Assembly: GCF_023055435.1 (NCBI RefSeq)
Contig: NW_025963902.1
Coordinates: forward strand, 2,667,815-2,731,814
Length of the DNA stretch: 64,000 nucleotides
Direction of reading: 5' to 3'
From: Haliotis rufescens
Lineage: Eukaryota
This document shows positions 4,109 to 51,410 of this stretch, piece by piece. The translations under genes and the position numbers were made by a program. How positions within the stretch are numbered: the first letter of the stretch is position 1; each line of letters starts with the position of its first letter. The notes beneath the pieces were generated by a model that saw nothing but the letters and a program-made list of their open reading frames with translations, was not told the DNA's origin and ran no database searches.

Positions 4109-4312
4109 TAACTGAATAAAAACTGTCGAAACACATCCTTAAACAAGTGCACTCACTTCCTGTCCAGTTATTTTGTTGTGAAAAGCGCTTTCATACAACA
4201 AATTATACCTATATCAGTTGAGTGTATGGTATAGCTGACACGAAGACTCAATTCTCAAGTTAGTTCATCATCACACAGACACGACAACTGATATCGATGT
4301 TAACTGTCTGTC

Positions 4313-4345
4313 ATTCATTCATTCATTCATTCATTCATTCACAGG
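4313..4345. repeat. (TCAT)n microsatellite
   Basis: tcattcattcattcattcattcattcattc. Confidence 0.8.
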
Positions 4346-5819
4346 GAACGTAATGTTACAAATACCTACAAGACACTTAGATCCTTATAAGAAGAAAGTA
4401 TAGCTGCCAGGCCATACAAAATCAGAAATACACGTATTTATGGGTTAAAATAAATTTATTGGCGAGTATGATGTGCATGCAAATATAAGATAAAAATAAG
4501 AAGCACAAATGACCAAAGTTATTGGGATGGGTAACAATGCACGATAGATATTGTTCTAATCTGCTCAAATGTAACCGTTCTGACACGCGTAACAGAGATG
4601 GATATTGGCGATGAATATCGTTCTAGTCAAGTGAAGGAAACAATACTGTGACACATCTAATACAGTCCTCGGTAACATATATAAACTTTTCCAAACGGTA
4701 TTGACACACACATCAGTGATGGAGAGGTATTGATAACTTAAAAGTTAAGTTTGCAAAATGGAAGTAATTCAAAACCCATTTTGTTTGACTGATGTTGTTT
4801 CTTAGCAGTTGATGCAAATAAACTCATCACACCAGTTACAACGTATAAACCAAGAACGAAAATGGGTACCCGGATGTGCATCCCAGCTCCACTTTAAAAT
4901 GTGTTGTAACAAAAACTAAGGGGAGAAAAATAAATAGAACCTGCAAATATAAAAAAAGATGATATACAAAAATGTTATGCAAAATTGGTGACTTGCTGAA
5001 TGTTGAACAAGACTCTCTCAATATAATATATAAATTGTCAGTGCAAGATAATAACCCATCTAGATTATCAGCCCAAACAGATTCCATTTAAACTTTTAGG
5101 GATTGAATTTGATGCAGACTCAGATGAAATGACTCAACTTTATTATCAAGAAAATCCGAAAAGATAAATAGAGAAATGAACATCGGGGACAAATGTTGTA
5201 CTGAAATCATTATTATTATTATCAAAACTTTCAAAAACAAATTCTTCAATTCCAAGCCCACCAGAACAACTAAAATTCAAACATAAACAGATGCTATAAA
5301 TTTATCTGGAAAGGAAAAAGAGGTAAAATTAAAAGAAACATTGTGCATTTAGCACCTGGATATGGAGGTGTTAGTGTTTCCAAAAGTTAAACATATTCAA
5401 CAAAAACCTTACATGGATAGACAGAATATTCATAATACATGGCGGATTCATTATACACGGCTGAACGTATTGTACCCAAATTTTAAACAAATTTTTGCAC
5501 TATGTATTAAATAGGTGGTCATGCTATTTGGAAAAAAACCGTGGTAATACAAAAAAAACTAGGCAGAATTAATAAACCAGTCAATATGGTACAACAATAA
5601 CATTACCGTGGATAATAAAACCACAACATAACATAATTTACATTATTGGAAAAAAGGAAGTAAGATGTTTTACCAATAACTACGTAATACATGTTTTGTT
5701 AAAATTCAAAACCAAGACATGTGGGAAATATAATGGGTAAGAAATATGAAGAAACTGAATGGATGAATGTTAATCTTAATTCACATGGATACACTACAAG
5801 GGTAAAATTGAGATGGTTT

Positions 5820-9195: not shown

Positions 9196-9398
9196 TTATT
9201 GTTTAACGCCGCACTCCAGTATTTCAGCTATATGCCGGCGGTCTGTAAATAATCGAATCTGGACCAAACAATCCAGTGATTGACATCATGAGCATCGATC
9301 TACATATGAGGATACGATGATATACATGAACAAAGTCAGCGAGCCTGACCAGTCGATCCCGTTCGTCACCTCTAACGACAAGCATAGTCGCATCCTGA
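9196..9398 (-). mobile_element. SINE family C copy
   Basis: Matches the family-C body. Confidence 0.5.
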
Positions 9399-11246: not shown

Positions 11247-11457
11247 TTACATATGAAGGGTTTCTGGTGTTTCATACACGGACCCACATCCATCATCTTC
11301 CTCAGATGTCTTCTGGTAGTCGTTGTGAACCACGTCTCTTCGCACAGCAGACAATCTGGTATAGTTGTCCATTTCAGTAGCATGGTTGGCCACGCCAGAC
11401 AGTTCCTGATTTGGGGGTGTTCTTCGCTGCCCATACTTTATGCAATGACAGACGGTC
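11247..11457 (-). CDS. TSR/EGF-repeat membrane protein, terminal exon (cytoplasmic tail, stop TAA)
   Basis: Acceptor atttacttttag|g. Continues the frame of track ORF 11247..11492: (W)TVCHCIKYGQRRTPPNQELSGVANHATEMDNYTRLSAVRRDVVHNDYQKTSEEDDGCGSVYETPETLHM then stop. Contains YTRL, a YxxPhi sorting motif. Confidence 0.45.
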
Positions 11458-11808
11458 CTAAAAGTAAATATTGACATTACGTACAACTGCATCTCTTATG
11501 CATGCTTTCTGCACTTCCATGTTACTTTACCTTACGATATCCTTTCTGTCGCCTTTTCCTCAACGGTACGCTGTGTTAAGTAGGCGTATGCTATTCTTTG
11601 TAACTAGCAGATTTGAACTAAGGCACATGAGGGGGGTTATGTAATACAGGGATGGGTGGGATGCAGATTCAGCCTGATTGTGGTCACCGGTTTATAAGCA
11701 CGATACCCATGCTCATATTAATTACCAGTTTGGTATAAGACTTCGGTGAATACTCAATATTTTGACTACACTGTGTAGCCGAGATACACTTTAGAGAAGA
11801 ATACCTAC

Positions 11809-11881
11809 CAGACAAGCGACGTCAGCACGATGGAGGCGACAGAGGCGATGATTGTGTACATGAAGTGAATTTGTGTTGAAT
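11809..11881 (-). CDS. TSR/EGF-repeat membrane protein, exon 5 (transmembrane helix)
   Basis: Acceptor ttaacattttcag|at and donor gtctg|gtaggt. 73 nt, phase 1 in and phase 2 out. Encodes STQIHFMYTIIASVASIVLTSLV, a 20+ residue hydrophobic stretch. The phase is compatible with exons 4 and 6. Confidence 0.45.
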
Positions 11882-12109
11882 CTGAAAATGTTAACCATAT
11901 TGATAAATATACTAAATAATAGTGCGTATGACATTACATTCCTGAAGTATATATTTTTCAGCAGTAGGTAACTTGATTACGATTTAAATTAAATTATTCA
12001 AACCAAGTTTCTTTTGTTCACAGCAGTCGATAATTTGCTGCAGCATTTGCCATACAACTGATCAAAATTAGCAGTATTCTGACATTACATATTGACAGTA
12101 GTCTGGCAT

Positions 12110-12369
12110 GAGTGAGTGAGTTGGGTTTTACGCCGCTTTTAACAGTATTCCAGTTATATCACGGCGTGTCAGCTTAATGTGGGAGGAAAGCCCGAAGTGA
12201 TGCAGGTCTCAGACGTTTACCACTTCGGTGAAACCCACGAGCACTGGTATGGTGCTGACAATCCTAGAAACATAATCGGGGCGAACCGGGATTCGAACCC
12301 ACACTCATAGGTTTCTGGCGTGCCCAAGGGACGCAACTCTGCACAGACGACCGGGCCACCCTTGCCCCC
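12110..12369 (-). mobile_element. SINE family B (tRNA-like head gggggcaagggtggcccggtcg..gggttcgaatcccggttcgcccc), full copy
   Basis: Full length with a (GAGT)n tail and the shared central domain. Lies in a TSR-gene intron. Confidence 0.6.
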
Positions 12370-12549
12370 TATTCTGGCATGACCAGGTTAGTTACATACT
12401 ATATGTACTAACAATATTGTGACTGGTCACAGCAACTATATATTGTATGTACTGGTAGTGATCTGACATGATCATGGTAGACATAGATAACGTAATACTA
12501 TGCTGACAGTATTCTGGCATTATAAGTATCTGTTCCACATTCAACCCAC

Positions 12550-12756
12550 CTTTCACTACAAATAGGTCACATTGTTTCACGTCTACAGTTTCGTGTCTCT
12601 CTCGATTACACTGGGCGTAACACTCGTCTTCCTTCTGCCCCACACGACAACAGAGGGATCGTTTTCTCGTTACTTCTCCGTTCTCGGAACCATTACAAAG
12701 TCCCCATGGTTCCCACATCGCCCAGGTGCATTTGGAACAATTGTCACGTGTTGCCT
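12550..12756 (-). CDS. TSR/EGF-repeat membrane protein, exon 4 (TSR-like 4)
   Basis: Acceptor catttcag|ag and donor gtgaaag|gtgggt. Phase 1-1, 207 nt. Encodes CSKCTWAMWEPWGLCNGSENGEVTRKRSLCC (WxxWxxW..C...RxR..CC) plus a Cys-rich tail. Matches the frame of track ORF 12392..12718. Confidence 0.5.
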
Positions 12757-13017
12757 CTGAAATGAAATTAGCTTTGATTTAAAAAAAATAACCATGATGA
12801 GATGAAGATTTGATAAGAATATCATTAATGTCACTTCATCACGTTCAGATATTCTATCAAGTTAATTATAGTCAGAGATGCATATAACACTCATAGGTTA
12901 TTATTTACCCTTTCTGATATATAAGCTTTTGAATCGTTGTGGGCCAAACACATTTTGTATCCCAGTTCACACTTCGCGATCAACAGAAACACATGGAAAG
13001 ATAGAGAAGCATCCTAC

Positions 13018-13290
13018 CATCAGAGCAGCAGGATCCAGAGTAGCCTCGTACACACTCACAGATGCTGCTTGAGAAACTGCCGTCGTTGAAACAAACTTCA
13101 TTGCAGCTCTCGGACTCAACTGTGTCATTCTCAGACAGGCTGCAGTCGTACAGGCAGTCCTTAACGGTTTGCCCTTCACAGCAACAAGGTGACCGTGACC
13201 TTGTCCTTTGACCTCCTCCACATGTCTGGCTACAGCTGCTCCATGGCTGCCACGCGTTCCAGGAACAAAGGGGGCAAGTCCGAGTCCTGT
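13018..13290 (-). CDS. TSR/EGF-repeat membrane protein, exon 3 (TSR3 + EGF-like)
   Basis: Acceptor catccatttag|ac and donor gatg|gtagga. Phase 1-1, 273 nt, no stop. Encodes CSWNAWQPWSSCSQTCGGGQRTRSRSPCC, a near-perfect TSR motif, followed by CNEVCFNDGSFSSSICECVRGYSGSCC (EGF-like). Not in the ORF track because the frame has no start codon. Confidence 0.55.
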
Positions 13291-13377
13291 CTAAATGGAT
13301 GTTGTAATAATTGCAATGAAAATATTTTTTTCAGCGTTCTGTTCAATTTGCAAAGCTTAGGTGATGGTATCATCATA

Positions 13378-13600
13378 TTGCAGGTCAGGAGCCGATACCA
13401 CCAGCATCACTGCTATTCAAATCATCATATTACAGGTCAGGAGCCGATACTAACAGCATCACTGCTATTCAAATCATCATATTGCAGGTCAGGAGCCGAT
13501 ACCAACAGCTTCACTGCTATTCAAATCATCATATTGTAGGTCAGGAGCCGATACCACCAGCATCACTGCTTTTCAAATCATCATAATGATCTTATCTCTG
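13378..13600. repeat. Tandem repeat, roughly 60-bp unit x4 (gtcaggagccgataccaccagcatcactgctattcaaatcatcatattgcag)
   Basis: Four consecutive copies, in the TSR gene intron. Confidence 0.6.
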
Positions 13601-13667
13601 GCTAATAGGAGATATTTCACTCCATTACTACTGTTCAAATCATCATTGGAGGCCAGTTGCACATTTT

Positions 13668-14235
13668 ATGCTTCGCAGTGCGGGTGTTTACAGGCGTCGC
13701 GGGGAACGTTATGCACGAAACTGCATACAGGAAGTGGACAGGTTTGGAGGTGTTATTGTGATGATGGGGGCAGATATCTCCTACGCTTGTAGAACAGTCT
13801 TGGTGCTAGTTTTGGGTGAATTTAACGGCACAATGTTTCAGGGAAGAGATTCTTCGGCCACACGTCCTTCCGATTATGCGGCAAGCGAACGTCATTTTCC
13901 AACAAGACAACGCCCGACCTCACCCGGCAAGACTGACAACAGTTTTGTCCATGCATCACAAGATCCAGGTCCAGCCATGGCTCTCCTTGACTCCAGATTT
14001 TAACCCAATCGAACATTTATGGGACGCACTGGATCAACGACTGTGAGCACGTCAGCAACAACCACAGAACCCCGACAGTTGGCATAAGCACTGCAGACAG
14101 AGTGGGAGAACATTCCTCAGGCAACAATTCGGAATCTGATTGTTCCATGGGTACAACGATGCCAGTCAGTTTTAAACTCTGATGGTGGCCAAACAAGATA
14201 TTGATAAATAGATGACCTTCACCTTGAAAATCCAA
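13668..14235 (+). mobile_element. Tc1/mariner transposase fragment (frameshifted)
   Basis: ORFs 13668..14003 and 13816..14046 contain IFQQDNARPHPARLT ... SLTPDFNPIEHLWDALDQRL. Lies in intron 2 of the TSR gene. Confidence 0.6.
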
Positions 14236-15121
14236 AGCTCCATGTGTTCCACATGGAGCCTAGGTCAGTGACAATGATGTGTGTCAATTTTGAACAGTCG
14301 ATTACCATTTGTCGATTATTTATTTGATGTATAAACTGTACATCTAAATTCACTTTTCCGTTTCTTTTTTTGCAGGGTATATAATTCGAACATGTTTGTG
14401 AAGGGTGATATCAAAAGGAGAACGCTACAAACGAATTTGACAAAATGATGCTAGGTGGTGAAGTGAAGAAGGCTTAAGAAATTGAGCTAAATGTTATGAC
14501 CATTTTTTATCATTGTAATGGCTTTTTTGTCGCACTGTGTAATACAAATTATCTTTGTACTCTACCATGACAATGAAGAATGCTTGATTTTGCAAGAGAA
14601 ACATCTGTTTCTGTATTTTAGCCTTTTCACACAAAACACATGCGTATGAAAACATCGATAGCCTACATATTGATCCATAACAAATGGCTCAGATCACCGA
14701 TAAGAACTGTATACCGTATCGATATTAAATCTAATTTAATCTGTTCAGTCATACCCCCGTTCATTTGGTAATAACCACGTTGTACCAGCAGCCTCTTCCC
14801 AGTAAATATACAGGTTAATGTTGAACAACATCATAGATCGGGGTTGTCATCTTGCTTCGTGTGACAAATATTGTCAGAGGCACGGATCGAGGCAATCTGT
14901 TACCCATACAATGGGCGATGGCATATTCGATTTCCAAGAAATGACAACGAGTTGCGATGAATTTATAACACATGTCTTTGGGATCAGTTTGGAGGGTAAC
15001 ATCTTTTTGAAAAACTTTCTGTTTTGGACCCTTATTATGAACTACTCGAGAACATGTGCATTGTAATGTTTAACTCATATCATATTTTTTACTTTTATAA
15101 CTACCTGTGACCCCTTTTCGG

Positions 15122-15648
15122 AATGTTCTAAGACAATCTCATTAAAATCAGACCTTAGTTTTCGCTACCGCTAAACAAAGATCTGAGGACATCCCATTAA
15201 GGGTCACGTCAGAACGACCTCGCGAACTTTGACCGTTCAATGAAATGACTGACAAGAAATAGACATTAGCCAATCAGAAGGCAGCTTTCTCGAGCTTTAC
15301 GACACTAGTTTCAAACTGGCGACTACGCTTCGAAACATATTTTGACGTATTCTCGGTTAAACATTTTAAAACTGATAAAAAAAACCATTCTGGAATGGCT
15401 TATAGATGGCCTAGATTGTATGGATATAATCATAAAACCCGTAACTGTCGTTCCGAATACCCGCTGTTAAATATTTCGTGGTTACATGATCAGAAAACAC
15501 ATTCCGTCTGTCACTTTCATGATCTGGAAAGCGACGCTCTGATTGGTTGGATGAAAGGTCGTTCTGACGTGACCAATAATTGGATGTCCTCAGATCTTTG
15601 TTTAGCGATAGCGAGAACTAAGATCTGATTTTAATGAGATTGGTTCTA
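15122..15648 (-). mobile_element. MITE with roughly 110-bp TIRs (Mutator-like), copy X2, 9-bp TSD ttctaagac
   Basis: Same family as X1 in the opposite orientation. ttctaagac directly flanks both ends. Confidence 0.55.
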
Positions 15649-15834
15649 AGACAGCGGACCTTTTATGGTAGAATGGAGATAAACCTACTGTTTTGCAATT
15701 TGACGTAGTCCTCTCACTGGAGAGTAGACAGCGATCGGTTCCAAATTAAGATAAGAGGTATCTACTCGACAGTGAGACTACATCAAACTTCAAAACACAG
15801 TAGGTTCATCTCCTAAATGTCTCTTCCCTGGAGA

Positions 15835-16192
15835 CTGCCTCCGTGGTCTTGTGGTAGAGCGTCCGCCCGGAGAGCGGAAGGTCCAGGGTTCGATCCCCGG
15901 CCGTGTCATACCAAAAGACATTAAAAGATGGTACTTGTTGTTACCCTGTCTGGCGCTCGGCATTAAGGGGCTAAAACAAGGACTGGTCGGCTCGGAGTCA
16001 GTATACTGTGTCTGAGTGGGGTATTCATGTTAAACTGCGGCATGGTATCTCAGTGAGCTAGCACTATAAATCAGCATCAGTCCGGACTAGTACAAGCAGC
16101 CACACAAACACACACACGTACATGCACGTCGCTATATAAGTGCAATATTCTTGGACGCGACGTTAAAACCCATTTCACCTCACCTCACCTCT
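15835..16192 (+). mobile_element. SINE family D (tRNA-like head cgcctccgtggtctagtggtagagcgtccgcc..ggttcgatcccc; (cacct)n end), full copy
   Basis: About 360 bp with an internal (AC)n and a 3' end of cacctcacctcacctc. Confidence 0.6.
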
Positions 16193-16297
16193 TTCCTGGA
16201 AGGTTTCAGTTTAGTGTACAATTAGGTCGTAATGATGAAGGACAAATCTCACTTACAAACCGCTGACAGTATAATCATTATCGTACCATTTACTAAC

Positions 16298-16460
16298 AGT
16301 CGGGTAGCCTAGTGGTTAAGGCGTTCACTCGTCACGCCGAAGGCCTGGGTTCGATTCTTGATATGGGTATAATGTGTGAAGCCGATTTCTGGTGTCCCCC
16401 GCCGAGATATTGCTGGAATATTGCTCAAAGCGGCGTAAAACAATACTCAGTCAGTCAGTC
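16298..16460 (+). mobile_element. SINE family A (tRNA-derived head gggtagcctagtggttaagg..gggttcgattc; (AGTC)n/(GAGT)n tail), full copy
   Basis: A-box and B-box-like tRNA head, the shared central domain ttgctggaatattgctcaaagcggcgtaaaac, and a tetranucleotide tail. Lies just 3' of TSR exon 2. Confidence 0.6.
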
Positions 16461-16482
16461 CAAGGAAATCCCTAGATATTAC

Positions 16483-16704
16483 CATTCTTGGTGCACAAAT
16501 GGGTGCAGACCCTCGTGTCATTGCTGTTCCCCCGGAAGTTGCAGTCCTCAGCGCAATTACTCCGGCTCAGTGATGATATACAACAGGGTAATCTGCTCCT
16601 GGTTCGATTTCCACAGCCACAGCCTGTGCTACAGCCTCCCCATGAGAACCAGTTGGACCACGTGCAGTATCGGGGACAGTCACCAGAAGCAGCAGTTGTC
16701 TCTC
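16483..16704 (-). CDS. TSR/EGF-repeat membrane protein, exon 2 (TSR2)
   Basis: Acceptor gtgtttaccag|ga and donor aatg|gtaata. Phase 1 at both ends (symmetric), 222 nt. The open frame encodes CTWSNWFSWGGCSTGCGCGNRTRSRLPCC, a TSR consensus, then a Cys-rich segment. Matches the frame of track ORF 16472..16717. Confidence 0.55.
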
Positions 16705-16920
16705 CTGGTAAACACATGAATGCGAGGTTTGTTATGTCAACCTCATATCTTCCATAACAAGGCTAATCCTACTTACACTTGTTGCTGCTCAACCTACCAT
16801 TGTCCAAGCCCTGGTTTTGTTATTTACCCAACAAAGTGGAAACAAAAGCAGTGTGTGATAACCCATCTTCCTATGAATACAATGTTGTTAAATAATACAC
16901 ACATGGTATCTTTGGTTTTT

Positions 16921-17178
16921 TATTGTTGTTTTACGCTGCACTCAGCAATATTCCAGCTATATGACGGCGGTCTGTAAGTAATCGAGTCTGGACCAGACAA
17001 TCCAGTGATTAATATCATGAGCATCGATCCACGCAATATGGATCGAGGACAAGCCTCAACCAAGTCAGGGAGCCTGACCACCCGATCCCGTTAGTCGCCT
17101 TTTACGACAAGCATAGTCACCTTTCACGGCAAGCATGGGTTGCTGAAGACCTATTCTACCCCGGAATCTTCACGGGTT
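16921..17178 (-). mobile_element. SINE family C, full copy
   Basis: Matches the family-C body. Lies in TSR-gene intron 1. Confidence 0.55.
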
Positions 17179-18227
17179 GTATCTTTGGGGGATTTGGTTG
17201 TTGACTTTATTGAGTAACGAATTACAACACTACAACTAACCCATATGTTTTTAACAGAATAACGTCGCAGAAACCTTGCATTCTGGCACCTGTATGGTCA
17301 ATTGTGGCTTAACTGTCTTGTTTGTTTGTTTGTTTGTGTGTTGTTTAAACTGGTGACGTCAGCCGGAAGTCCGTCATGTTTTGTCTTGCCATGAACATGA
17401 TAAAGCATGGCCACAATACTGACGGTGCATTCTTGTTTTCTCGCGACTCAGGGTTGGCTGGACCAAAAAACTGGCAAAGTTCTATGCGAACATTTAAGAT
17501 AAATATGAAATAACTTTTGTCGTTGTAGAAATGACGAAATCTAGGCATCTTCGTGGGTCGCATTGATAATGTTAATGACGTTTTGATAAGCCACTTGCTT
17601 CGTATTCTGCGATTGTTTACGTAGTATCTCAACCTTTCATAGAGGAACAGAATCATGTCTTGAATAAAGACACAGTTTATACCACCAGAAGTATACAAGT
17701 CAGTGTTAGCAAAAGTTTAAATACGACCCCTTTGGGGGGCAGTCTTAATGTATCAGTCAAACTAATTCTTTTGCAGTTGTCTCAGCATAGTTAAATTACA
17801 CGCGATTAAACAGAATCATGAACCCAGTTCAAGTAAATGTTAAACGCCAACACCTGAGATTGTCCGTCGAAACAGATTCCACTTGGACTAATGGCCATAA
17901 TAACGGTGACAAGTTAATGAATGGATCACTGAAAAACAGTGATAGCACCAAGTGTTCGCGAAAAATGTAAGCATATCCTACCCCACCGATAGCATTCGCC
18001 AGTCCCACAATTTGCGTAAAAATGTATGTGTTTGTTGCCGGACATCAGACTATTTGTAATGGAATCGTGAACGATTTCTTTTCATGATGCTATTCACATA
18101 TTATTTGTATCTGTGTTCTGCATGAACTTCTGCGAAACTTCAGTTAGAACTGTTCCCATGTGCAATCTTTAAATGGAATGGATAACATTATCATGATTAC
18201 ATGTTTTGGACATTCAAGGCTAACTCG

Positions 18228-18509
18228 GGGGAACGGGGGGCCGAGTAGTCTAAGGCGCCGCGATTGGCTGTGCAGAGCTGCGTCCCTTGGGCACGCCAGA
18301 AACCTATGATTGTGGGTTCGAATCCCGGTTCGCCCCGTTTATATTTCTAAGTTTGTCAGCACCGTACCCGCCCTCGTGGGTTTCACCGAAGTGGTAAACG
18401 TCTGAGACCTGCATCACTTCGGGCTTTCCTCACATATTAAGCTGACACGCCGCGATAGAACTTGAATACTGTTAAAAGCGGCGTAAAACCAAACTCACTC
18501 ACTCACTCA
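18228..18509 (+). mobile_element. SINE family B, full copy
   Basis: Reverse complement of the 12110 copy. Tail (cact)n. A diverged B-related fragment follows at about 18530..18700. Confidence 0.6.
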
Positions 18510-18831
18510 AGACTAGCTCAATATTCTAACTTTATGGTATGAGTGAGTTTGGTCTGACGCCCATATTAATTAGCTTTATGGGATAGGATGAGTATGGCCA
18601 ACGATCTTGGATATGAAACCGGAATTTGAACCATGCATGCTATGAGGTTTCCTCTGCACAAGGAAATGCGGAGCCTCAGACGACTGGGCCAATCATTCCT
18701 CACATGAAGAAATTAATGACATATCTTTGACATAACATTGATATAAAATTGACATTTCATCCAATACCAGCACGCGAATGAGATGTTTGGCAAACCCAGT
18801 GACAAAACAAATATTAATAAAATACACATGC

Positions 18832-19147
18832 CTCGTTCACAACAGTTTCCATATCTGAGAGGAGGACAGTGACAGTAGCCATCGATGAAGCTTCCACCAT
18901 TAGGGCAGTGTGTCTCACAATATTCCGTCTCCACGGACGTGTTTGGTCGTTTGCAGATACCGATACAGTCTGGAACATGAACTCCACAGCACATCTTCCG
19001 TGTTCTGGTTCTGACCCCAGCACATGTTCTGGTACAGGAGCTCCACACACCCCAGGACTCCCACTCACAGGTTTGAAGCCCGGGTTCACACACACAGTCC
19101 ACCACCAGAGGCAGCACCACGGCGAGGTACACCTTCAGGAGAGTCAT
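18832..19147 (-). CDS. TSR/EGF-repeat type-I membrane protein, exon 1 (signal peptide + TSR1 + EGF-like Cys module)
   Basis: Minus-strand ORF (track 18713..19189) read from an internal ATG gives MTLLKVYLAVVLPLVVDC (signal peptide) then CEWESWGVWSSCTRTCAGVRTRTRKMCCG, which fits the thrombospondin type-1 consensus WxxWxxWSxCSxTCGxGxxxRxRxC, followed by a Cys-rich EGF-like segment. The 3' boundary is uncertain: a GC donor after ..CCER g gives phase 1, matching the next exon; alternative GT donors 4-6 nt downstream would give phase 2. An acceptor-like tttttcag sits about 40 nt upstream of the ATG, suggesting a 5'UTR exon boundary. Confidence 0.5.
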
Positions 19148-20865
19148 GTCAGCAGTGTGACTGAACCCAGTATCCTGCGATGGCAACACTTTCCTGAAAA
19201 ATAGGAAAACAGTGTTATCTCATTGTTTATTCAAATGCGATTGCCGTCGCTGCATGACTGATGCGTGATGTTTGTGTTTATGGCCTTCTGCAGATAAATG
19301 AGTATAATTGAATAATTGGTTAAACAAAACTATTTAAAAACTCTGTTTGATCATACTTTTTATAATATCGCAATCAGATATTACATTTTATTCTCAAAGG
19401 TAAAAGAGTGTGAGTGAGTTAATATTTTAAGTCACGTCAGCAATATTTCAGCCATTTGGTGACTAGACAAGATAATGCGTTTGATGTTATAAAGCGTACC
19501 GTCAAAGGAAGTAAAACAAGAAAACAGCGTTATCATTAACCCGACGTAAGGAGAACAAAATTTAGTTCTAATTCGTCCCGCAAACGAAGTTCAGCTGTTT
19601 CTGAGAAAACTTGCCCCTATTGCAAAATAACATGGATCGAAGGCCGTAACTCAGTAAACAATTAATTGACGGGACCAATTTTGGAACTCAGTCTTGACAA
19701 GTATCTCTTGACAAAACACAAGTTCAAAATCACGGAGCAAGGGCTTTTTCCCTGTACAAATTTAATTTACGACTGCTGACAAGTTTAGCCGATAATTAAG
19801 ACATACCAAATTATATTGCGATTAAAAACGTGGTAGCCATAAAAATACTGGCAATGACGTATGGGATAAAGCACGCCTCCGAGGTTTGGGTTGAAAATAT
19901 TTAAAAAAACGCCAGTGAGGGAGAGCTTTCCCCGAGGTCAAGGTTTTACATTTCCAACCAAAACCGAGGAGGCGTGTTTTATCCAACTTATGAACCGACT
20001 AAATGCAAGAAAAACACAGAAAAAAAGAAAACATTGAAATACCTTACAGTGAAACAATACAGTGTATCGCAGTATAAAAGGAATTTGCTCAAAGCGTGCG
20101 AGAGAAAAACCACGTGCAGCATGGACTAGCTGGAGTCATGACATGATGAACTTGACAACTTCTGATCACCTGCCCTGGTAGCTCAGTGATAAACAGTGGT
20201 TACAAAACTTAACACGATATGAGGTTTCAGGTTTGATTCAAGTCATGGAATTGTTCACATTAAAACAACTTTGGCTTTTAACCAATCATCAAACACAATT
20301 GTGTTCACATCAAGAGTAAAGTTAACAAAACGTTAATTGTGAAATCTAGGTATTTCAATTGAAATGTATTCATCAGGTCACGTGAATTACTCCGGAACGC
20401 TTTTTGGCATTGTTGGTATTGCCTTCCTTGTAAGGTTATCAACATTTAGAAGAACTTTCTGTTACTGTTGTGTGACGTCATCAGAGGTTTATAAGTGGTC
20501 TTATGTGCCCTCTCGGGGGCAATGGTTTTACGATTCTTCAACCCCTATCGAGGAATCGGCCTCTTTAACCTTAGTTACTGATTTCTTCTTCCAAATTAAA
20601 ACGCATTCAATTTATACAAAACAATATTAAAATTTGTGAATAAATTCATGTTTTTAAAAATAATAATAATAAACAATTAAAAGAATGTTTGTATTTCTAA
20701 AAAGATCCATCAATGAAGATGCTTTGAAAACATTATCACTTGTGTTGGCAAAATCAACAGTCAAGCAGGACATTTGTGACCGTGATTCGTTCATCACAAG
20801 GGATACAAAATTGAGGATAATAACCTTTCAATAAATAATCATGTAAAATCGTCCTCTTTACATCT

Positions 20866-22095: not shown

Positions 22096-23040
22096 CTACA
22101 ACGTCTTGGGTTGTGGTTGACGTCGGCGTAGCCGTCTATCCAATTCATCCCACTGGTGCTCTATCGGGTTCAAATCCGGGGATCTGGAGGTCCAGGGGAG
22201 AACCTTAACGTTGTTTTTGTGTAGACAGGCTCTTGTGATCCTTGCTGTATGCGGTCGAGCGTTGTCTTGCTGGAATACACCGTTGCCGTTGGCTGCAATT
22301 GGAAGGACGTGTGGTAGGAGAATTTCGTTGCTGTGTCGTTGAGTCGTAAGATTACTCTGGATATTGATTAAACCTGTCCTGCCATGATGAGAGATATCCG
22401 CCCACATCATAACGCTACCCCTACAAAACCTGTCCACTTCCTGTATGCAGTTTCCGGCGTAACGTTCTCCCTGACGTCTGTACACCCGTTCTCTACCATC
22501 CCCTCGACGAAGGAGAAATCGTCGCTGAACCAGACATCTCTCCATCGAAGTTGAGGCCATACCCTGTGTTGACGACATCAATGCAGTCGTTGGTGACGAT
22601 GTTGTGGACTCAATATGACGCATCGAACAGGACGTCTCGCTCGTAGACCTGCTGCTCTATAAGGTTTCTTACGGACTGCTCGGATATTCTGCGCAGTCCG
22701 GGTATTTGGGATGCGGTTGAAGTTGTTGTGATCGTCCTTTCACGTAGGTGGCGCAGTCGGATGTAGCGATCTTGGACGGGGGTGGTTACTCTTGGTCCTC
22801 CCGACCTTGGCCGATCACGTGTTAACCCATGCTGTTAAAACCGATCCCATAGCCTTGTGATGGTGCTGGGCGTTATATTGAAAACCTTGGCTACAGCTGA
22901 TCGTGATTCCCCTGCCTGTAAGCGGCCTATGACGTTGTTTCGTTGCACTTTTGTTAATCTTGGCATGTTGTTGAACTGTCACTGTTCGATCGACGCCGAT
23001 GCCAGGCAATAAAAAAACCCTGCACTTTAATACCGTTCAT
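22096..23040 (-). mobile_element. Tc1/mariner-family transposase relic (pseudogene)
   Basis: Track ORF 22096..22623(-) contains FQQDNARPHTAR ... WTSRSPDLNPIEHQWDELDRRL, the DD34E catalytic C-terminus of Tc1-like transposases. Upstream frames carry fragmented N-terminal DNA-binding region with frameshifts. Confidence 0.65.
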
Positions 23041-24569: not shown

Positions 24570-26190
24570 ACTGAGACACCAATAAGACACCAATCAGAAA
24601 TAAATAAGACACCACTTAGACAACACTGAGACACCAATAAGATACCAATCAGAAAAAAATAAGACCCCACTAATACACCACTGAGACACTAATAAGAAAA
24701 CCAATCAGAAATAAATAAGACACCACTAAGACAACACTGAGACACCAATAAGATACCAATCAGAAATAAATAAGACACCACTAAGACACCACTGAGACAC
24801 CAATAAGAGACCAATCAGAAATAAATAAGACACCACTAAGACACCACTGAGACACCAATAAGATACCAATCAGAAATAAATAAGACACCACTAATACACC
24901 ACTGATACACTAATGAGAAACCAATCAGAAATAAATAAGACACCACTAAGACACCACTGAGAAATCAATAAGATACCAATCAGAAATAAATAAGACACCA
25001 CTAAGACACCACTAAGCCACCAATAAGATACCAATCAGAAATAAATAAGGCACCACTAAGATACCACTGAGACACCAATCAGATATAAATAAGACACCAC
25101 TAATACACCACTGAGACACTAATAAGAAACCAATCAGAAATAAATAAGACACCACTAAGACAACACTGAGACACTAATAAGAAACCAATCAGAAATAAAT
25201 AAGACACCACTGAGACACCATTGAGACACCAATAAGATACCAATCAGAAATAAATAAGACACCACTAATACACCACTGAGACACTAATAAAAGCCAATCA
25301 GAAATAAATAAGACACCACTAAGACACCACTGAGACACCAATAAGAGACCAATCAGAAATAAATAAGACACCACTAATACACCACTGAGACACTAATAAG
25401 AAACCAATCAGAAATAAATAAGACACCACTAAGACACCACCGAGACACCAATAAGAAACCAATCAGAAATAAATAAGACACCACTGAGACACCAATAAGA
25501 TACCAATCAGAAATAAATAAGACACCACTAAGACACCAATAAGATACCAATCAGATCTAAATAAGACACCACTGAGACACCAATAAGATACCAATCAGAA
25601 ATAAATAAGACACCACTAAGAAACCACTGAGACACCAATAAGAAACCAATCAGAAATAAATAAGACACCACTGAGACACCAATAAGATACCAATCAGAAA
25701 TAAATAAGACACCACTGAGAAACCAATAAGAGACCAATAAGATACCAATCAGAAATAAATAAGGCACCACTAAGACACCAATAAGAAACCAATCAGAAAT
25801 AAATAAGACACCACTGAGACACCAATAAGATACCAATCAGAAATAAATAAGACACCACTGAGACACCAATAAGAGACCAATAAGATACCAATCAGAAATA
25901 AATAAGACACCACTGAGACACCAATAAGAGACCAATAAGATACCAATCAGAAATAAATAAGACACCACTAAGACACCAATAAGAAACCAATCAGAAATAA
26001 ATAAGACACCACTGAGACACCAATAAGAGACCAATAAGATACCAATCAGAAATAAATAAGACACCACTGAGACACCAAAAAGAGACCAATAAGATACCAA
26101 TCAGAAATAAATAAGACACCACTAAGACACCAATAGAACGCCAATAAGACACCGCAAGGAAATAAATAAGACACCACTAAGACACCAATA
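24570..26190. repeat. Minisatellite, roughly 55-bp unit (cagaaataaataagacaccactaagacaccactgagacaccaataagataccaat), about 30 copies
   Basis: Visible periodicity. Track ORFs 25189..26100(-) are read-through of the repeat. Confidence 0.7.
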
Positions 26191-26864
26191 AGAAGCATAG
26201 GTTTGTCAAAGCCAGCTAAATAGTGAATCCAGCATTGGTATATTTATTAGAATATGTAAATTTTACATATTTATGAATCTGATACATTTGTCGGAAAGAT
26301 TTACCTTTCGTGTAAAACTGTGGTCGTCTGGTTGAAGGATACAGTTATTCCTGAGCGGTGATGCAGTTTCTTGAATGTGATTACGTTAATACACGACTCA
26401 GACGTTTTATCACGGAACTGTAATGCTCGCCAGCAATAAGCCACGCCATTTATGAAGTATGAATACAGGTTATCAATACTATTTCTATACTGCTGTAACT
26501 TCCCTGTCACTGGAAATATGGACCGGAATATAAACAATGCCTTTTATTCGTAAATGTCAATTGTTTAAATCCTCTCCTTTATACGCATCATGTAACGTTC
26601 ACTGTAACACGTTGCTGAATAGCCTTGTTAGTACCGAGATGTTCTTTTCATCATATATTGTGTTTTTATTTCCTTCTTTTAATTTAGTAGCTTATGAGTG
26701 TTTCATGGTTTCATGTTTTTTCGTTTTGACAATGTCTGTCAGATTCATCACACATGCATTGAATCCCCATACATCCACGAAGACCCCTTCCAAACAGTGC
26801 ATGCTCTGAGACGATAATTTGGTTGTACATTTGTTGCATATACCATAATAAAACAGTGAGTACC

Positions 26865-27214: not shown

Positions 27215-27417
27215 ACGCCGCAATCAGCAATCTTAATCTTGCAGCTATATGACGGTCGTCTGAAAATAATCGAGTCTGGACCAGACAATCCAGTTATTGG
27301 CACCATGAGCATCGACCCATGCAATTGGATACGATGACATGCATCAACTAAGTCAGCGAGCCCGACCAACCGATCCCGTTAGTCGCCTCTTTCGACAAGC
27401 ATGGGTTGCTGAAGACC
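27215..27417 (-). mobile_element. SINE family C copy
   Basis: Abuts a truncated SINE D at its 5' end. Confidence 0.5.
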
Positions 27418-27429
27418 TATGCACATGTG

Positions 27430-27802: not shown

Positions 27803-29264
27803 CGGCCTCAAGCATGTATAGACGAGTACATACATGTACGTGACATTTCCCTATGATGTGATTAGAATCGATCAATCAACACTGATTTTAGTAGAGATTA
27901 TTATGGGAGGAGTCTTACCACTTTTAATTATACATATTAATACTTTTAGACCTCCGTGTACCCACACTGTCATGATACACTTATAGTGTTCTCTAAAGTA
28001 GGTTTGACGTTTTAATCCCTATTCTGAAACGTGCGGCCCCTATTGCCAGTACATGACATGTCACAGACGAGTGGGTCATGTGCTTTGACGCACTGCACAG
28101 TTCAGAGACCCTCGAGCTACATGTTCTGTTTGTGATTGATGTTGAGAATGACGACGTGTTCTAATCAATCACGATCGAAAACAGGTACTACTGATACTAC
28201 TGAACGAATGGAGCGACGTGTTGTCTATGGGCGACAGAAGTTCTTTTGTAATTCCCATGCATGACATGGTCAGAATAACTGAAGTAGCTTTTAGCAGCTC
28301 ACCATTAAAAGTACATGCATATTACACGTGTTGGCATATTAACTACTATGAATTATGAACAGTTTTCGCGAACACCGGGCATCATCACTATTTGATAATG
28401 ATTTATTAACAAATGCTTATGATAAAGTCAAATCGTACAATGGACTTTGCTTTTAGTAGAGATTTCTTATGATGATGGGATTTTGTGTGCCGCTTATTTA
28501 TACAATATGTATATTGAAGGTTTTTCTGCGAGCGCCTGACAAAGTGTTTTGGTCTGTGTGAGAGAAATGCCTTAGATTCCAACAAAATGTATCTTTTTAA
28601 CTTGGCTGATCCAAATCTCCACAGTGTATTTACATTCGAACATAAATTGTGAGGTGATTTAGTCATGAGGCTTTCACATATGTTTACAACAAAAGTACAA
28701 AATCTTGCTGGTGCATCAGTCAAGCACGTCCATCCACTTTTATGTGGTTATTAGTCACTGTGTAATTATTGAAATGCATTTCACCCCATGATCTAGTTTG
28801 TTTTAATTTATATCTGAGATGTTTCAGTACTATTCGTACAGTTGCGAGATTTAATGTTTCACTCACTTACTTCATATTACTATATACAGACAATAAATAC
28901 ATGGTGGACCTATCAATTTGAAAAGATAATGTCCTTTCTTTATTAAACAAATATCCACCATTTCCTTGCTTTGGATAAAACATTTCGACGAAGCACTTGT
29001 AAACTTGTAGCATTATGAATTAATTTAACAAGTGAGAAGAAATCATTGCCATTGCTCAAAGCATATGGGACAATTTATGTGAGACATGATGACAGATTTA
29101 ACTGCGCCTGCGTCACAGCATATCCTCGTAATAATCACTCATGGAGAAAACGAGGTTGACAAACACACATTGTGACGTCAAGAGTGCCTTTGACCAATCT
29201 GTGTCAGTTCCGGCCAGACTTAATGACATAACTGCCCTCTGGTCATCGCAACAAACGCCATTGT

Positions 29265-29284
29265 CCAATCCGGGCGCTATAAAT
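29265..29284 (+). promoter_or_regulatory. CCAAT box plus TATA box (ctataaat) about 40 bp upstream of the gene-1 start codon
   Basis: tgtccaatccgggcgctataaatg lies immediately upstream of the ATG at about 29325. Spacing is consistent with a core RNA polymerase II promoter. Confidence 0.4.
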
Positions 29285-29324
29285 GTTCAAGGCAGGTTCA
29301 GTCGTGACTTCATCTCACACAACC

Positions 29325-29405
29325 ATGAGGGTGACGGCAACACTGGCAGTCATGTTGGGGCTTGTGTTATGCAGCTGTATGGTTCAAGGTCAAACTCGGC
29401 AACAG
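29325..29405 (+). CDS. Gene 1 (N-glycosylated secreted protein with internal repeat), exon 1: signal peptide
   Basis: ATG in an acc atg a context. Encodes MRVTATLAVMLGLVLCSCMVQGQTRQQ, a hydrophobic signal peptide, then donor cag|gtaaag, phase 0. Position taken from the frame of track ORF 29283..29525. Confidence 0.5.
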
Positions 29406-30261
29406 GTAAAGATCTTTATGTTTTCAATAATTCGTCTTATGATTTTCCAATCCTTTATCTCGGAAATTACTCTTAGGAGTTCTCATTTTTTGAAACCTTG
29501 GAATGGGGATGTTTCAACAAGATAATTTTGCGCCAAATAAAGTAATTGTAAATCTCTACACACAAACATGCAGCCATTAAGGGGAGGAATAATACACCAT
29601 CAGTACATTGCCGCGATATCGCTTCACTGCTGCTGACTGAGGCGACAAACAACAACACAACATATAAAAGGGTAGCGGAGTTTCCGAAGGACGATTGTGG
29701 CCTGATCTTAAAGTATCTCACCTAAAACATGAATGTCGAATTGTGATTGGCTTAGGCCCATTCTGTTGTTTTCAATGTACCCCAATAACACGTAAGGTGC
29801 ATTTCTTATATTTCCCGCTCGGATTGCCGAACTGTGGTAACATACCAACCGCATTTGTATCTCGAACTGAGGATGTATTTACGAAATTTTAGAAATGAAA
29901 TTATTAAATAAGTTTCTTTATTGCCATTGCTAATTTTCCAAAATGTTTAATTCTTACCGACTGAGATCATGGCATGCATACATAAGACATATATTAGGTG
30001 TGCAGTTAGAAAACTTCTTGGTCCTCTGGTTCCCCCGGTGACACAGGTTAATGTACCCTCAGTGTTAATTTAAGTTACTGGTGGACAACTTATAATATAT
30101 GCCATTGGAATCATCTAGTCTAATGTAACTGTTGACACGATGCCCGGACATTTCTATTTTCACCACAAAGCATCCGTTGCAATGATGCTAATGTTAACAT
30201 TGTAGATAAACATTTCACTAAAACATACAGCATTCAAAATTGAGTTGATTGTGTATTTCAG

Positions 30262-30469: not shown

Positions 30470-31200
30470 ACTGATCATACTCTGATTTATCACGAGTTAT
30501 ATCACGGAACGTGAGCTTGATGTGAACATATCACGGCGCGTCAGCTTCATGTGAACAGTATTTCAGTTATACCACGGCACGTCAGCTTGACGTGTGATGT
30601 GAACAGTATTTCAGTTAGCTTTCACGTCAGCTTGATGTGTGGTGTAAACAGTATTTCAGTTATACCACGGCACGGCACGTCAGTTTGACGGGTGATGTGA
30701 ACAGCATTTCAGTTATACCACGGCACGTCAGCTTGACGTGTGATGTGAACAGTATTTCAGTTATATTACGGCACGTCAGCTTGACATGTGATGTGAACAG
30801 TATTTCAGTTATATTACGGCACGTCAGCTTGACGTGTGGTGTAAACAGTATTTCAGTTATATTACGGCACGTCAGCTTGACGTGTGATGTGAACAGCATT
30901 TCAGTTATATTACGGCACGTCAGCTTGACGTGTGATGTGAACAGCATTTCAGTTATATTACGGCACGTCAGCTTGACGTGTGATGTGAACAGCATTTCAG
31001 TTATATTACGGCACGTCAGCTTGATGTATGATGTGAACAGTATTTCAGTTATATTACGGCACGTCAGCTTGATGTGTGGTGTGAACAGTATTTCAGTTAT
31101 ATCACGGCATGTGAGTTTGCTGTGAACAATATTTCAGCTATATTACGGCACGTCAGTTTGACGTGTGATGTGAACAGTATTTCATTTATATCACAGTGCG
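30470..31200. repeat. Minisatellite, 48-bp unit, about 14 copies, each unit containing the inverted repeat cacgtca-gct-tgacgtg
   Basis: ORFs 30637..31125(+) and 30660..30995(-) show 16-aa periodic peptides. Lies in gene 1 intron 2 immediately after exon 2. Confidence 0.7.
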
Positions 31201-31299
31201 TCAGCTTGATGTGAAATTTTGACCTCTCTTTAGTCTGTACAAAGTTAGATCCTTACAATAACGGACACTACAGTATCCCAATCGGTACAACGCTTGTTC

Positions 31300-34456: not shown

Positions 34457-36116
34457 TAGTGGTGTAACGATACGGCGATACAGTATTGTATCCCGATGCA
34501 CAGCCCACGATACGATGCATCGATTTGGAAAGCATGTATCGCGATACATACGATATTTTCATAACAGCAGTTATACCTACCGTATTTTCTTGAGTATAGT
34601 GCGCACTTTTTTCCTAAAAACACAGCTGTGTAGAAGGGGTTGCTCATTGTACACGAATTAATGAGTTTTGATGTTTTTCCCCCATGGAAAGACATTACCG
34701 TGAGCACGTAACCCCGGAAATACCATGTCAACAAATCCATACTGAAGTTCGCAAATTATTCATGTAATTACACTGTCTGGCTATAAAAAAAGTGTTCTTT
34801 GAATATCTGGACTCATGTTTGTAACTTATTTCATTAATTTTATTCAAAATTCCTTTTAATATTGTTATAATTAATTTCGGCGAAATCGTGTGTGAAGCGA
34901 TCGGAAGATCGCACAACTCACCGTTATTAACAGCAACCCCCGGTCAGATTACCGCTATTGACGCCTTGAAAGGAATTTTAGTTGACAGAGAATGGATACA
35001 TATATCATAAATGCCATACTTTGATTCGTCAAAAGTCAGATTTGTTTTTGTTGGACGATTATATGTCAACACATAATTCTCGCGATCACGCGATCACGTG
35101 CACGGGAGCCTTGACGGTGTCTGGTCAGACTGGTTCCATGTAAAAAATAATACCCGGCAATAGCGATCAGCTGCTTCGCTTAGGGTTATTATTATTTTAA
35201 ATATGTTTAGTAAAAGCTGCATCTAAATTAACAATATATTGGAATATATTATTCCTGATAAAAAAATAGTTTTAGATACAACTTTTGCCGATCCTTGCAT
35301 TAAAATACTGAAAAGTTCTATCATTGGGTGTGTCTTGCCCGAATCACCGGTAGATTCCAAGAAAACGTGTGTACATGTACAGCTGATTGCTGTGTCCGGC
35401 TTAGTTTACGAGAAAATACACAAGGTAATCTTAATCCCTGGATATAAAACAATGCCTAGCTGAACAAAAAATACAATTTAAACGGTAAATCAACATGTCT
35501 GGTGATTTTTTATCTCAAATTTCGAATTTGTACTAACGAAGTTTCTCATCACCCGTTCGTTTGCCGGACTTCGCTGAAGGGGTACGGTGTAATTTTTTTC
35601 TGCGCATAATATTCATATTTCTTTTTTTCCAAAATATTGAACCCGCTAGAGGGGCGTGCGCATTATACATCGGTGCGCACTATACTCAAGAAAATAGATG
35701 AAATACATGGGCGGATACAGCTTTTTTGAAAAGGGGGGGTGCACAATTAAGATCTATTTATTATTGTCTTTGGTGGTAATTTATACAGAAATAAAGATTT
35801 TTTTCTAAATAAAAAGGTGTGTGTGTGTTGGGGTGGGTGGGGGTGGGGTGTGTGTGCGCCCATGAAATACTTTAACAGTTTCAAAGCCAGTTTGTTGTTT
35901 CAGTAAAACATACTGTATTGCTGACAATTTACTATAACAGTAAATAAACACCTTATATCTTCTTCAACTGTACTTGTCACATATTTTAGATAGCAGAAAG
36001 ACAGCAACTTGGCTTAGCTTGTACCAGTAAACACTGTATCGTGATACGTATCGTATCGCGACCCCTGTATCGGGATACGTATCGTATCGCGACCCTCCCG
36101 TATCGTTACACCTCTA
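34457..36116 (+). mobile_element. Nonautonomous hAT-like DNA transposon, copy 1 (1660 bp)
   Basis: 19-bp TIRs TAGTGGTGTAACGATACGG ... CCGTATCGTTACACCTCTA. Subterminal GATACG-type repeats. Perfect 8-bp TSD gtatgtat. Inserted in an (ATGT)n microsatellite. No long ORF. Near-identical to copy 2. Confidence 0.7.
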
Positions 36117-36230
36117 GTATGTATGTATGTATGTATGTATGTATGTATGTATGTATGTATGTATGTATGTATGTATGTATGTATGTATGTATGTATGTAT
36201 GTATGTGTGTATGTATGTATGTATGTATGC
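36117..36230. repeat. (GTAT)n microsatellite, 3' flank of hAT copy 1
   Basis: About 27 units. Confidence 0.8.
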
Positions 36231-38183: not shown

Positions 38184-38294
38184 GACATGGTGGTGACTAA
38201 AGCCTACGTGTCAGGGAGCCGGAAGTGCATCGTCCTCCCAGGAAATATCACCGAGGACTTCAATACCACCATGACTGACATACTGGCCAGGAAG
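38184..38294 (+). CDS. Gene 1 exon 3
   Basis: Acceptor ttctatttgctacag|g and perfect donor aag|gtgagt. 111 nt, phase 0-0. Encodes DMVVTKAYVSGSRKCIVLPGNITEDFNTTMTDILARK. Frame of track ORF 38175..38378. Confidence 0.5.
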
Positions 38295-38371
38295 GTGAGT
38301 TGTGTGTTGAGGGGCGGGGTGAGGGATGGGGTTGTGTGTCTGGGGGTGGGGGGTGTGGGGGTGAGGATGCA

Positions 38372-51050: not shown

Positions 51051-51410
51051 GCAGAATTAATAACATTCACAGAAATAATAGCCCAAAGAGATAAATCGAC
51101 CTTCCTTGAAAGTGTCAAAATCACGAATGACACTCTTCTCACGTGTGTGGCGCTAAGTACTGCGTGAGGCATGTGCAAACTATCGGATGTGTTTTGGTGT
51201 GATGTTTTAAATTCATAAACGTTCTTGCATTGGATGTTTGTCGTCAACACGTATCCTTGTTCTTATACTTGGTATAAACATTTATATTTCTTTATCCCCT
51301 ACTTTTTATAAAGATATTTTTTTATAATAACCATTTGATACTATTAAGCTTAAGTATAAGGCACACGGTGTGGTCTTATGTTTAAGTCTTGGTCTTAAAA
51401 GATGAGATTC

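Follow-up and report, generated by a model that had tools for sequence, protein, structure and literature searches.

A six-exon red abalone gene for a predicted single-pass membrane protein with thrombospondin type-1 repeats and one hypervariable exon

Does locus LOC124133313 of the red abalone, Haliotis rufescens, encode only the short uncharacterized protein that RefSeq predicts for it, or a full-length surface protein of which that product is the C-terminal end? We addressed this in a stretch of 64,000 nucleotides (nt) of contig NW_025963902.1 (positions 2,667,815 to 2,731,814 of the forward strand), here called the window, to which all coordinates refer unless another locus is named. A preliminary description of this DNA had proposed a minus-strand gene for a type-I membrane protein built of thrombospondin type-1 repeats (TSRs) and epidermal growth factor (EGF)-like modules. 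The locus is a genuine six-exon protein-coding gene, and a gene of an ordinary, familiar kind, namely a TSR-containing membrane protein with automatically annotated orthologues. What the present analysis adds is an orthologue assignment, a corrected full-length model that runs through a predicted GC-AG intron, and the recognition of a hypervariable TSR exon in a gene cluster probably shaped by conversion. The reading that we favour, and hold to be fairly probable, is that the product is a 433-amino-acid (aa) single-pass type-I surface protein, acting as a cell-surface binding receptor in which the second repeat, TSR2, is the specificity part.

Gene model, orthologue, and the first intron

Translation of the minus strand between 10.5 and 20.5 kb brought out four long Cys-rich open stretches with W-x-x-W-x-x-W, and a DNA-level reading of the splice sites in this region joined six exons into an open 1302-nt frame. 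The predicted protein has 433 aa, rather than the roughly 390 aa first estimated. The intron phases are, in order, 1, 1, 1, 1, and 2, compatible across all junctions. All acceptors are AG, and all donors are GT except that of intron 1, which is a GC donor (AG/GCATGT, the slash marking the splice point). The parts of the gene, including a transmembrane (TM) helix, are as follows.

19148..19550, minus strand: conserved upstream region, a putative 5' untranslated region and promoter, 99.5-100% identical to Haliotis cracherodii against a background of 96-97%.
18832..19147, minus strand: exon 1, coding part of 316 nt, from the ATG at 19147-19145 to a phase 1 end at the GC donor (G/GCATGT); signal peptide (aa 1-20), TSR1 (CEWESWGVWSSCTRTCAGVRTRTRKMCC...), and a complete EGF-like piece (CETHCPNGGSFIDGYCHCPPLRYGNCC).
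16483..16704, minus strand: exon 2, 222 nt, phase 1-1; TSR2 and a Cys-rich linker, without the EGF-like half; the hypervariable exon of the family.
13018..13290, minus strand: exon 3, 273 nt, phase 1-1; near-canonical TSR3 (WNAWQPWSSCSQTCGGGQRTRSRSPC) and a complete EGF-like piece (CNEVCFNDGSFSSSICECVRGYSGSCC).
12550..12756, minus strand: exon 4, 207 nt, phase 1-1; degenerate TSR4 (WAMWEPWGLCNGSENGEVTRKRSLCC), without the TC-G-G motif, and a Cys-rich linker.
11809..11881, minus strand: exon 5, 73 nt, starting in phase 1 and ending in phase 2; juxtamembrane stalk, followed by the larger part of the TM helix (FMYTIIASVASIVLTSLV).
11247..11457, minus strand: exon 6, 211 nt including the TAA stop codon at 11249-11247; end of the TM helix, KYGQRR stop-transfer sequence, and 63-aa cytoplasmic tail.

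The proposed set of six phase-compatible exons is borne out both by this open joined frame and by matching exon structures in orthologues and paralogues, and the phase 1-1 symmetry ascribed to the TSR exons holds for exons 2-4 (222, 273, and 207 nt). In four H. cracherodii RefSeq paralogues, whose coding sequences we reconstructed, the exons measure 316/219/273/207/73/211 nt with the same phases. The window exons are equal to these in length except for exon 2, which at 222 nt is 3 nt longer. An AG acceptor (TTTTTCAG/G) at about position 19196, some 48 nt before the ATG, points to a possible non-coding exon further upstream. We saw no microexon for the EGF-like half that TSR2 lacks, and the junction of exons 2 and 3 is confirmed by all orthologues.

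The preliminary description left the orthologue unassigned. It can now be identified as the full-length H. cracherodii protein XP_071092922.1 (P0020, named 'semaphorin-5A-like'). Over all 29 kb compared, the window and the P0020 locus are collinear, with ~94% nucleotide identity in megablast blocks and 96-97% in clean non-coding stretches. We regard P0020 as the orthologue because of this collinearity, the same exon structure, and the same GC donor (GCATGTGT) in intron 1. The protein annotated at the red abalone locus itself, XP_046353625.2 (uncharacterized protein LOC124133313, H. rufescens, 150 aa), was found when a profile of the TSR4-TM-tail half was run against 1.84 billion representative proteins. 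It is 100% identical to aa 284-433 of our model, comes from the same locus, and lacks the signal peptide and TSR1-3; its coding sequence starts at the Met of MWEPWG in exon 4. The RefSeq annotation of the locus therefore covers only the C-terminal 150 of the 433 aa that we predict.

The discrepancy turns on the donor of intron 1. The frame is kept only with AG/GCATGT, and two nearby GT donors lead to stops at aa 115 and 108. Splicing at the GT that lies 4 nt past the GC donor causes a frameshift, after which the longest remaining open reading frame (ORF) begins with MWEPWG and has 150 aa, which would account for the short RefSeq annotation. It is possible, then, that the T-to-C change in this donor cripples the locus, that the +4 GT is used, and that the outcome is a 114-aa secreted stub, mRNA decay, or the 150-aa C-terminal ORF, with no 433-aa protein. 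This account draws on the fact that RefSeq annotates the locus with the 150-aa protein only, identical in length and start to the ORF left by +4 splicing. It also draws on the high ratio of nonsynonymous to synonymous divergence (omega) between the orthologues, 0.81 overall, with 14 nonsynonymous and 0 synonymous differences in exon 6. However, H. cracherodii has the GC donor as well, and there the RefSeq prediction is the complete protein of 432 aa. Being common to both species, the donor is probably older than their divergence, and still neither ORF has been disrupted. The orthologous ORFs are separated by 79 differences, neither with a stop, whereas random placement of 79 substitutions left the ORF open in 2.2% of simulations, a figure that carries less weight if some of the changes came by conversion from intact paralogues. 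Their sole indel is an in-frame 3 nt, the donor context keeps -1G, +3A, and +5G, as known GC-AG introns do, and the scaffold Cys, Trp, and Arg are all retained. Paralogues with canonical GT donors, moreover, have similar omega. We consider a crippled locus quite unlikely and take intron 1, on this comparative evidence, as a predicted GC-AG intron.

As for exon 6, the window tail resembles those of the other paralogues, and that of P0020 is the odd one. This may reflect either rapid evolution of the P0020 tail or gene conversion in one lineage.

Membrane topology and composite modules

By hydropathy, the protein has only two hydrophobic segments, aa 1-20 and aa 344-370, and Kyte-Doolittle windows of 19 residues exceed 1.6 only at window starts aa 1-6 and 344-352. 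The basic KYGQRR follows directly after the TM helix. Together with the signal peptide and the single TM helix, this stop-transfer sequence makes up the pattern of a type-I single-pass protein, in agreement with the preliminary description, and the predicted ectodomain carries six N-glycosylation sequons. The short cytoplasmic tail (63 aa) has the expected YTRL at aa 396-399, together with DY411 and VY425-ETPE. Both Y396 and Y425 are invariant in a six-sequence alignment that includes H. asinina, and the first motif reads YT[RSN]L in the California species and YTSL or YPSL in H. rubra. YTRL is present as a motif and is a putative YxxΦ endocytic sorting signal (Tyr-x-x-bulky-hydrophobic, AP-2 mu type). 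Readings of the tail tyrosines as immunoreceptor tyrosine-based inhibitory or activation motifs, or as Grb2-type sites, were also considered, but these motifs are inconsistent across species and we claim none of them.

The WxxWxxW motif is present in all four modules, with R-x-R-x-R in TSR1-3 and T-R-K-R in TSR4, which proved as degenerate as first thought. The preliminary description had the TSRs alternating with EGF-like modules. The four TSR modules are there, but a complete EGF-like piece occurs only after TSR1 and TSR3; TSR4 has no EGF-like part, and TSR2 keeps only its Cys-rich linker, having lost a 22-aa EGF-like stretch that is still present in the paralogue P0007.

Evidence for the identity of the TSRs is strong, as judged from sequence profiles and structure models, despite a Pfam score that falls just short. 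On the whole protein, TSP_1 (PF00090) scored 19.8 bits against a gathering threshold of 21.6 (E=9e-4), with a match that covers TSR3 only, at profile positions 2-35 of 49. The paralogue P0007, a more conservative family member, passes the same model with 34.8 bits against 21.6, which places the window protein among TSR proteins by within-family homology. When a profile of 22 family modules was compared with PDB sequences, it matched the TSRs of thrombospondin-1 at E=5.1e-10 and F-spondin at 1.3e-5, with C6, TRAP, and BAI1 below 0.003; Sema5A and properdin were matched as well. The thrombospondin-1 alignment spans profile positions 5-59, which implies that the Cys-rich 'linker' corresponds to the C-terminal half of the TSR and that the EGF-like piece comes after it. 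For structure prediction, the rows of the module alignment were restricted to single exons. The AlphaFold model of module 3 has a predicted local distance difference test (pLDDT) score of 81.9 and the elongated three-strand TSR fold. The best matches in a fold search were all TSR structures, over ~50-58 residues, and the best for a single module was Sema5A TSR3-4.

The EGF-like pieces present a different picture. Run in isolation, the piece of module 3 gave EGF_TEN at E=0.012 (15.7 bits against 65, below threshold) and that of module 1 nothing; hEGF reached E=0.035 for P0007 and Reelin EGF E=0.8 for the module profile, so that no EGF model came up to threshold. By eye, the pattern C-x-C-x5-G-x2-C, which is the PROSITE EGF_1 pattern, can be seen as CHCPPLRYGNCC in module 1 and CECVRGYSGSCC in module 3, and it is absent from modules 2 and 4. 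The usual third EGF Cys is replaced in these pieces (GSF/GSY), and the module 3 model predicts a beta-hairpin before the pattern, with strands at 71-73 and 76-78. From sequence and model, the EGF label appears weaker than the preliminary description held, with support at the level of the pattern only.

It is also important to compare these modules with canonical TSRs, such as those of thrombospondin-1 (TSR2/3), F-spondin, properdin, UNC5, BAI1, and semaphorin-5A. The abalone modules have the WxxWxxW and RxRxR ladder in common with them (profile E=5e-10). They differ in having a 'CC' doublet after strand B, a predicted short helix-containing Cys-rich segment in place of the C-terminal half, and an EGF-like piece fused to the repeat, in which the usual third Cys is missing and another 'CC' stands at the end. 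Among the abalone modules, only TSR3 has the O-fucose site C-x-x-S/T-C-x-x-G.

Could the gene nevertheless be the orthologue of a named metazoan TSR protein? NCBI names for P0001-P0007, P0020, and P0023 imply ADAMTS adt-2, semaphorin-5A, or hemicentin-1, and Sema5A TSR3-4 is, as noted, the closest single-module structure. But the protein lacks any metalloprotease, disintegrin, Sema, PSI, VWA, or Ig domain, and Pfam gives only sub-threshold TSR matches. At 433 aa with one TM helix, it has no room for the domain sets of ADAMTS, semaphorin-5, or hemicentin proteins. Nor did the TSR4-TM-tail profile find anything convincing outside Haliotis among the 1.84 billion representative proteins, and all non-Haliotis matches to the full protein were generic TSR arrays at 25-31% identity. 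Orthology to ADAMTS, semaphorin-5, or hemicentin proteins is refuted by domain content, and any orthology of this kind is extremely improbable; the names adt-2-like, semaphorin-5A-like, and hemicentin-1-like arise from TSR similarity only.

Judged by sequence, the composite of TSR and EGF-like unit is not unique to abalone. In the bivalve Ruditapes philippinarum, LOC132733354 (P0047) has a unit of TSR, linker, and EGF-like piece that aligns end to end with the exon 3 module (42% over 89 aa, E=1e-15), with most Cys matched. P0047, too, is a type-I membrane protein whose tail contains Tyr (...VYENL...), but its single N-terminal module leads into Ig domains. The same composite module occurs in the EGF-like proteins P0053 and P0122 of unionids, which are short, show no obvious TM segment, and run on into genuine EGF repeats. 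None of these bivalve proteins has the four-module array or the TM and tail sequence of Haliotis.

The gene family and the divergence of exon 2

Among 5.8 billion proteins searched, strong matches were found only in abalone, at 89-90% identity in H. cracherodii, 70-71% in H. rubra, and 62% in H. asinina. A protein cluster at 90% identity consists of one H. rufescens protein and four from H. cracherodii, these four being encoded on a single chromosome, and does not include the exact 433-aa sequence. These relatives, P0020 with its paralogues XP_071093777.1, XP_071092931.1, and XP_071092930.1 in H. cracherodii and XP_046347506.2 ('hemicentin-1-like') in H. rufescens, are computational predictions with misleading names. 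They are 432 or 431 aa long and share 89-90% identity with the window protein, which differs from them in one extra Ala, due to a 3-nt insertion in exon 2, and in a distinct TSR2 loop. The family comprises at least five near-identical genes, four of them within one 0.24-Mb cluster in H. cracherodii, and a tblastn search of the window found no second member. A weak match on an ENA metagenome contig (P0029) offered no usable locus context, and a search of proteins with a profile of the module alignment yielded only the H. rufescens protein P0024 from 125 candidates, which was uninformative. The 'hemicentin-1' gene of an abalone growth genome-wide association study (~120 kb, on another chromosome) is unrelated.

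Three of the tandem H. cracherodii paralogues (L001, L003, and L004; JAJLRC010000011.1, 5.22-5.32 Mb) alternate with opposite-strand DUF4874 and DUF4832 genes, which indicates that the duplicated unit is a two-gene cassette. The window gene and the orthologue locus (L002) have no DUF4874 or DUF4832 neighbour within 10 kb. At L002 1-943, which corresponds to about 29100-30035 of the window (plus strand), there is an H. cracherodii gene call with a 222-aa product; it starts ~10 kb upstream of the orthologue and is oriented away from it. Its exons were not recognised among the window ORFs at ~29.1-30.0 kb.

Nearly all the amino-acid variation among six California-species sequences falls in exon 2, where the alignments place the most variable part of the protein.

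16553..16582, minus strand: most variable 8-residue stretch, C-ISSLSRSN-C, codons 147-156, flanked by the second Cys of 'CC' and the Cys that follows.

The two bracketing Cys are lost together in three H. rubra paralogues, and this paired loss suggests that C147 and C156 close a disulfide loop directly after the RxRxR strand of TSR2. At the nucleotide level, identity of exon 2 to the orthologue locus drops to 83-84% in 200-nt windows, against the background of 96-97%. We estimated nonsynonymous (dN) and synonymous (dS) divergence per exon by the Nei-Gojobori method for all ten pairs. Exon 2 gave dN of 0.09-0.22 and dS of 0.09-0.28, compared with typical values of 0.01-0.06 and 0.00-0.15 in the other exons; outside this typical range fell the dS of the 73-nt exon 5 (up to 0.34) and the dN of P0020 exon 6 (up to 0.09). 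Nonsynonymous density in exon 2 was 2-6 times that of the remainder, with Fisher p values of 1e-6 to 1e-11 in nine of the ten pairs.

The sequences form two paralogue lineages, the window gene with P0020 and P0001 with P0021 and P0022. Between them, the intron flanks differ by 0.14-0.45 and exons 1, 3, 4, and 6 by 0.01-0.07 (0.01-0.10 over the exons in general, exon 2 excepted), whereas exon 2 differs by 0.09-0.20. Single exons can be near-identical between distant paralogues, for example exon 1 of P0020 and P0022 (dS 0.014). These distances are most simply read as the result of frequent gene conversion at the scale of exons, with purifying selection acting on all but exon 2, which would retain old diverged versions.

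The variability of exon 2 might also be functionally meaningless in a gene that is otherwise real: TSR2 would have been relaxed after the loss of its EGF-like half, the other exons would have been homogenised by conversion, and exon 2 would have become too diverged to join. The mosaic near-identity of single exons shows conversion to be active. In recent pairs, divergence is also higher in the intron flanks of exon 2 than in the flanks of the other exons, and the Cys pair of TSR2 is gone in the three H. rubra paralogues. Furthermore, dS in exon 2 goes up together with dN and whole-exon omega is ~0.7-1.5. With dS so raised and omega around 1, escape from conversion or relaxed constraint would give the same picture as positive selection. 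Against this, the Cys, Trp, and Arg-ladder residues of TSR2 are all invariant in the six California-species sequences, and it is the residues between them that change. At the 46 non-scaffold codons of exon 2 (those other than invariant Cys, Trp, Arg, and Gly), omega is 1.0-3.0 in all ten pairs, although this partition was chosen post hoc, after the data had been seen. Between the orthologues, the dN of exon 2 (0.166) exceeds the noncoding background distance of ~0.03-0.05. We find relaxed constraint combined with escape from conversion a live but somewhat unlikely explanation; the pattern is compatible with diversifying selection and is not proof of it.

Thrombospondin, properdin, UNC5, BAI1, and semaphorin-5A all use TSRs to bind ligands, which include sulfated glycans and proteins. 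By analogy, the abalone product would be a cell-surface binding receptor whose TSRs, with their Trp-Arg ladders, present ligand-binding faces. TSR2, and especially the short Cys-bracketed loop after its RxRxR strand, would be what sets specificity, varying from one paralogue to the next. Through the conserved tail tyrosines (Y396 in YTxL and Y425 in VYExP), binding may be coupled to endocytic sorting or tyrosine-based signalling. The label 'adhesion or guidance receptor', which the preliminary description had attached to the gene, we treat as an inference.

Several observations count against this receptor reading and should be set beside it. Use of the GC donor, and hence the full-length H. 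rufescens protein, depends on a comparative argument, with RefSeq predicting only 150 aa. The TSP_1 score stays under its threshold, and a Pfam scan of the whole protein returned no EGF family at E<=1. The whole-protein AlphaFold prediction was poor (pLDDT 50.6, predicted template modelling score 0.23, from an 8-row alignment) and was not used for the fold search. The H. asinina clade has YTNN in place of YTRL and does not keep a YxxΦ motif there. Whole-gene omega is high, at 0.56-0.93, and the exon 2 statistics carry the post hoc partition and the parallel rise of dS described above. A literature search found nothing on this family, its ligand, or its expression.

A further step from the binding receptor that we favour would be to see the whole family as a lineage-specific, clustered receptor repertoire. 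In it, conversion keeps the scaffold exons alike while the TSR2 exon, with its Cys-closed 8-residue loop, is kept different, for example for recognition of microbes, gametes, or settlement cues. We regard this extension as speculative and rather unlikely.

Intron contents, surroundings, and implications

The introns were said to hold copies of short interspersed elements (SINEs) and a Tc1 fragment, and they do contain such sequences: four or five families of interspersed repeats, with further copies elsewhere in the window, and a degraded DDE fragment. The tandem repeat, described as having a 60-bp unit, has a unit of 52 bp. The following features were located.

13369..13585, no strand assigned: tandem repeat of intron 2, 4.2 copies of a 52-bp unit with 93% matches.
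13668..14046, plus strand: degraded Tc1/mariner-type transposase fragment in intron 2, seen in ORFs (...FQQDNARPH...NPIEHLW...); Pfam DDE_3 E=0.0012, 19.2 bits, below threshold.
15833..16191, no strand assigned: SINE-like repeat in intron 2, with more copies at 45204-45560, 50416-50775, and 60669-60904.
16299..16460, no strand assigned: second SINE-like repeat of intron 2, with a partner copy at 55878-56039 in which Rfam recognises a tRNA.
16918..17177, no strand assigned: third interspersed repeat family, in intron 1, with other copies at 1969-2163, 9214-9389, 27234-27420, and 51410-51670.
18227..18515, no strand assigned: repeat of a fourth interspersed family, in intron 1; intron 4 holds a copy in the opposite orientation (12099-12360).

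Rfam tRNA matches lie at 45486-45557 and 55969-56040, both on the minus strand, and score 31.7 and 31.1 bits, just above the gathering score. Since they fall inside repeats of the two families that have copies in intron 2, we read them as tRNA-derived SINE heads and not as tRNA genes.

Elsewhere in the window, a 1511-nt element is present as two inverted copies, at 34607-36117 and 60878-62388, which are 99% identical and have no long ORF. Both adjoin a (TATG)n-type microsatellite. It looks like a very recently copied non-autonomous element, and a relative at ~70% identity lies in intron 1 of an H. cracherodii paralogue (L001 11527-12353). A large satellite at 24590-26200 has 11-bp/55-bp periodicity and extreme strand asymmetry: in the 24-26 kb bin, GC skew is -0.30 and AT skew +0.43. 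The array orthologous to it in H. cracherodii (L002 ~4155-4618) is much shorter. Further tandem arrays occur at 38198-39317 (41-bp units, ~98% identity), 30496-31234 (48-bp), and 52738-53500 (15-bp), the first of which yields spurious minus-strand ORFs of 320-334 aa. About 3 kb upstream of the gene, at 22096-22623 on the minus strand, there is a Tc1/mariner-type transposase remnant with a Pfam DDE_3 score of 33.3 bits, above threshold.

Taken together, these results have consequences for annotation and for the biology of the family. The H. rufescens locus should be re-annotated to encode 433 aa through a GC-AG intron in place of 150 aa, and the misleading ADAMTS, semaphorin-5A, and hemicentin names within the family could contaminate functional enrichment in abalone studies. 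The family offers a compact case of exon-level mosaic evolution, in which the scaffold exons are homogenised and one TSR exon has diverged. If exon 2 is under diversifying selection, the family would become a TSR-based candidate among the few diversified recognition receptors listed for molluscs. If true, this would be relevant to disease and reproduction in abalone, several species of which are endangered.

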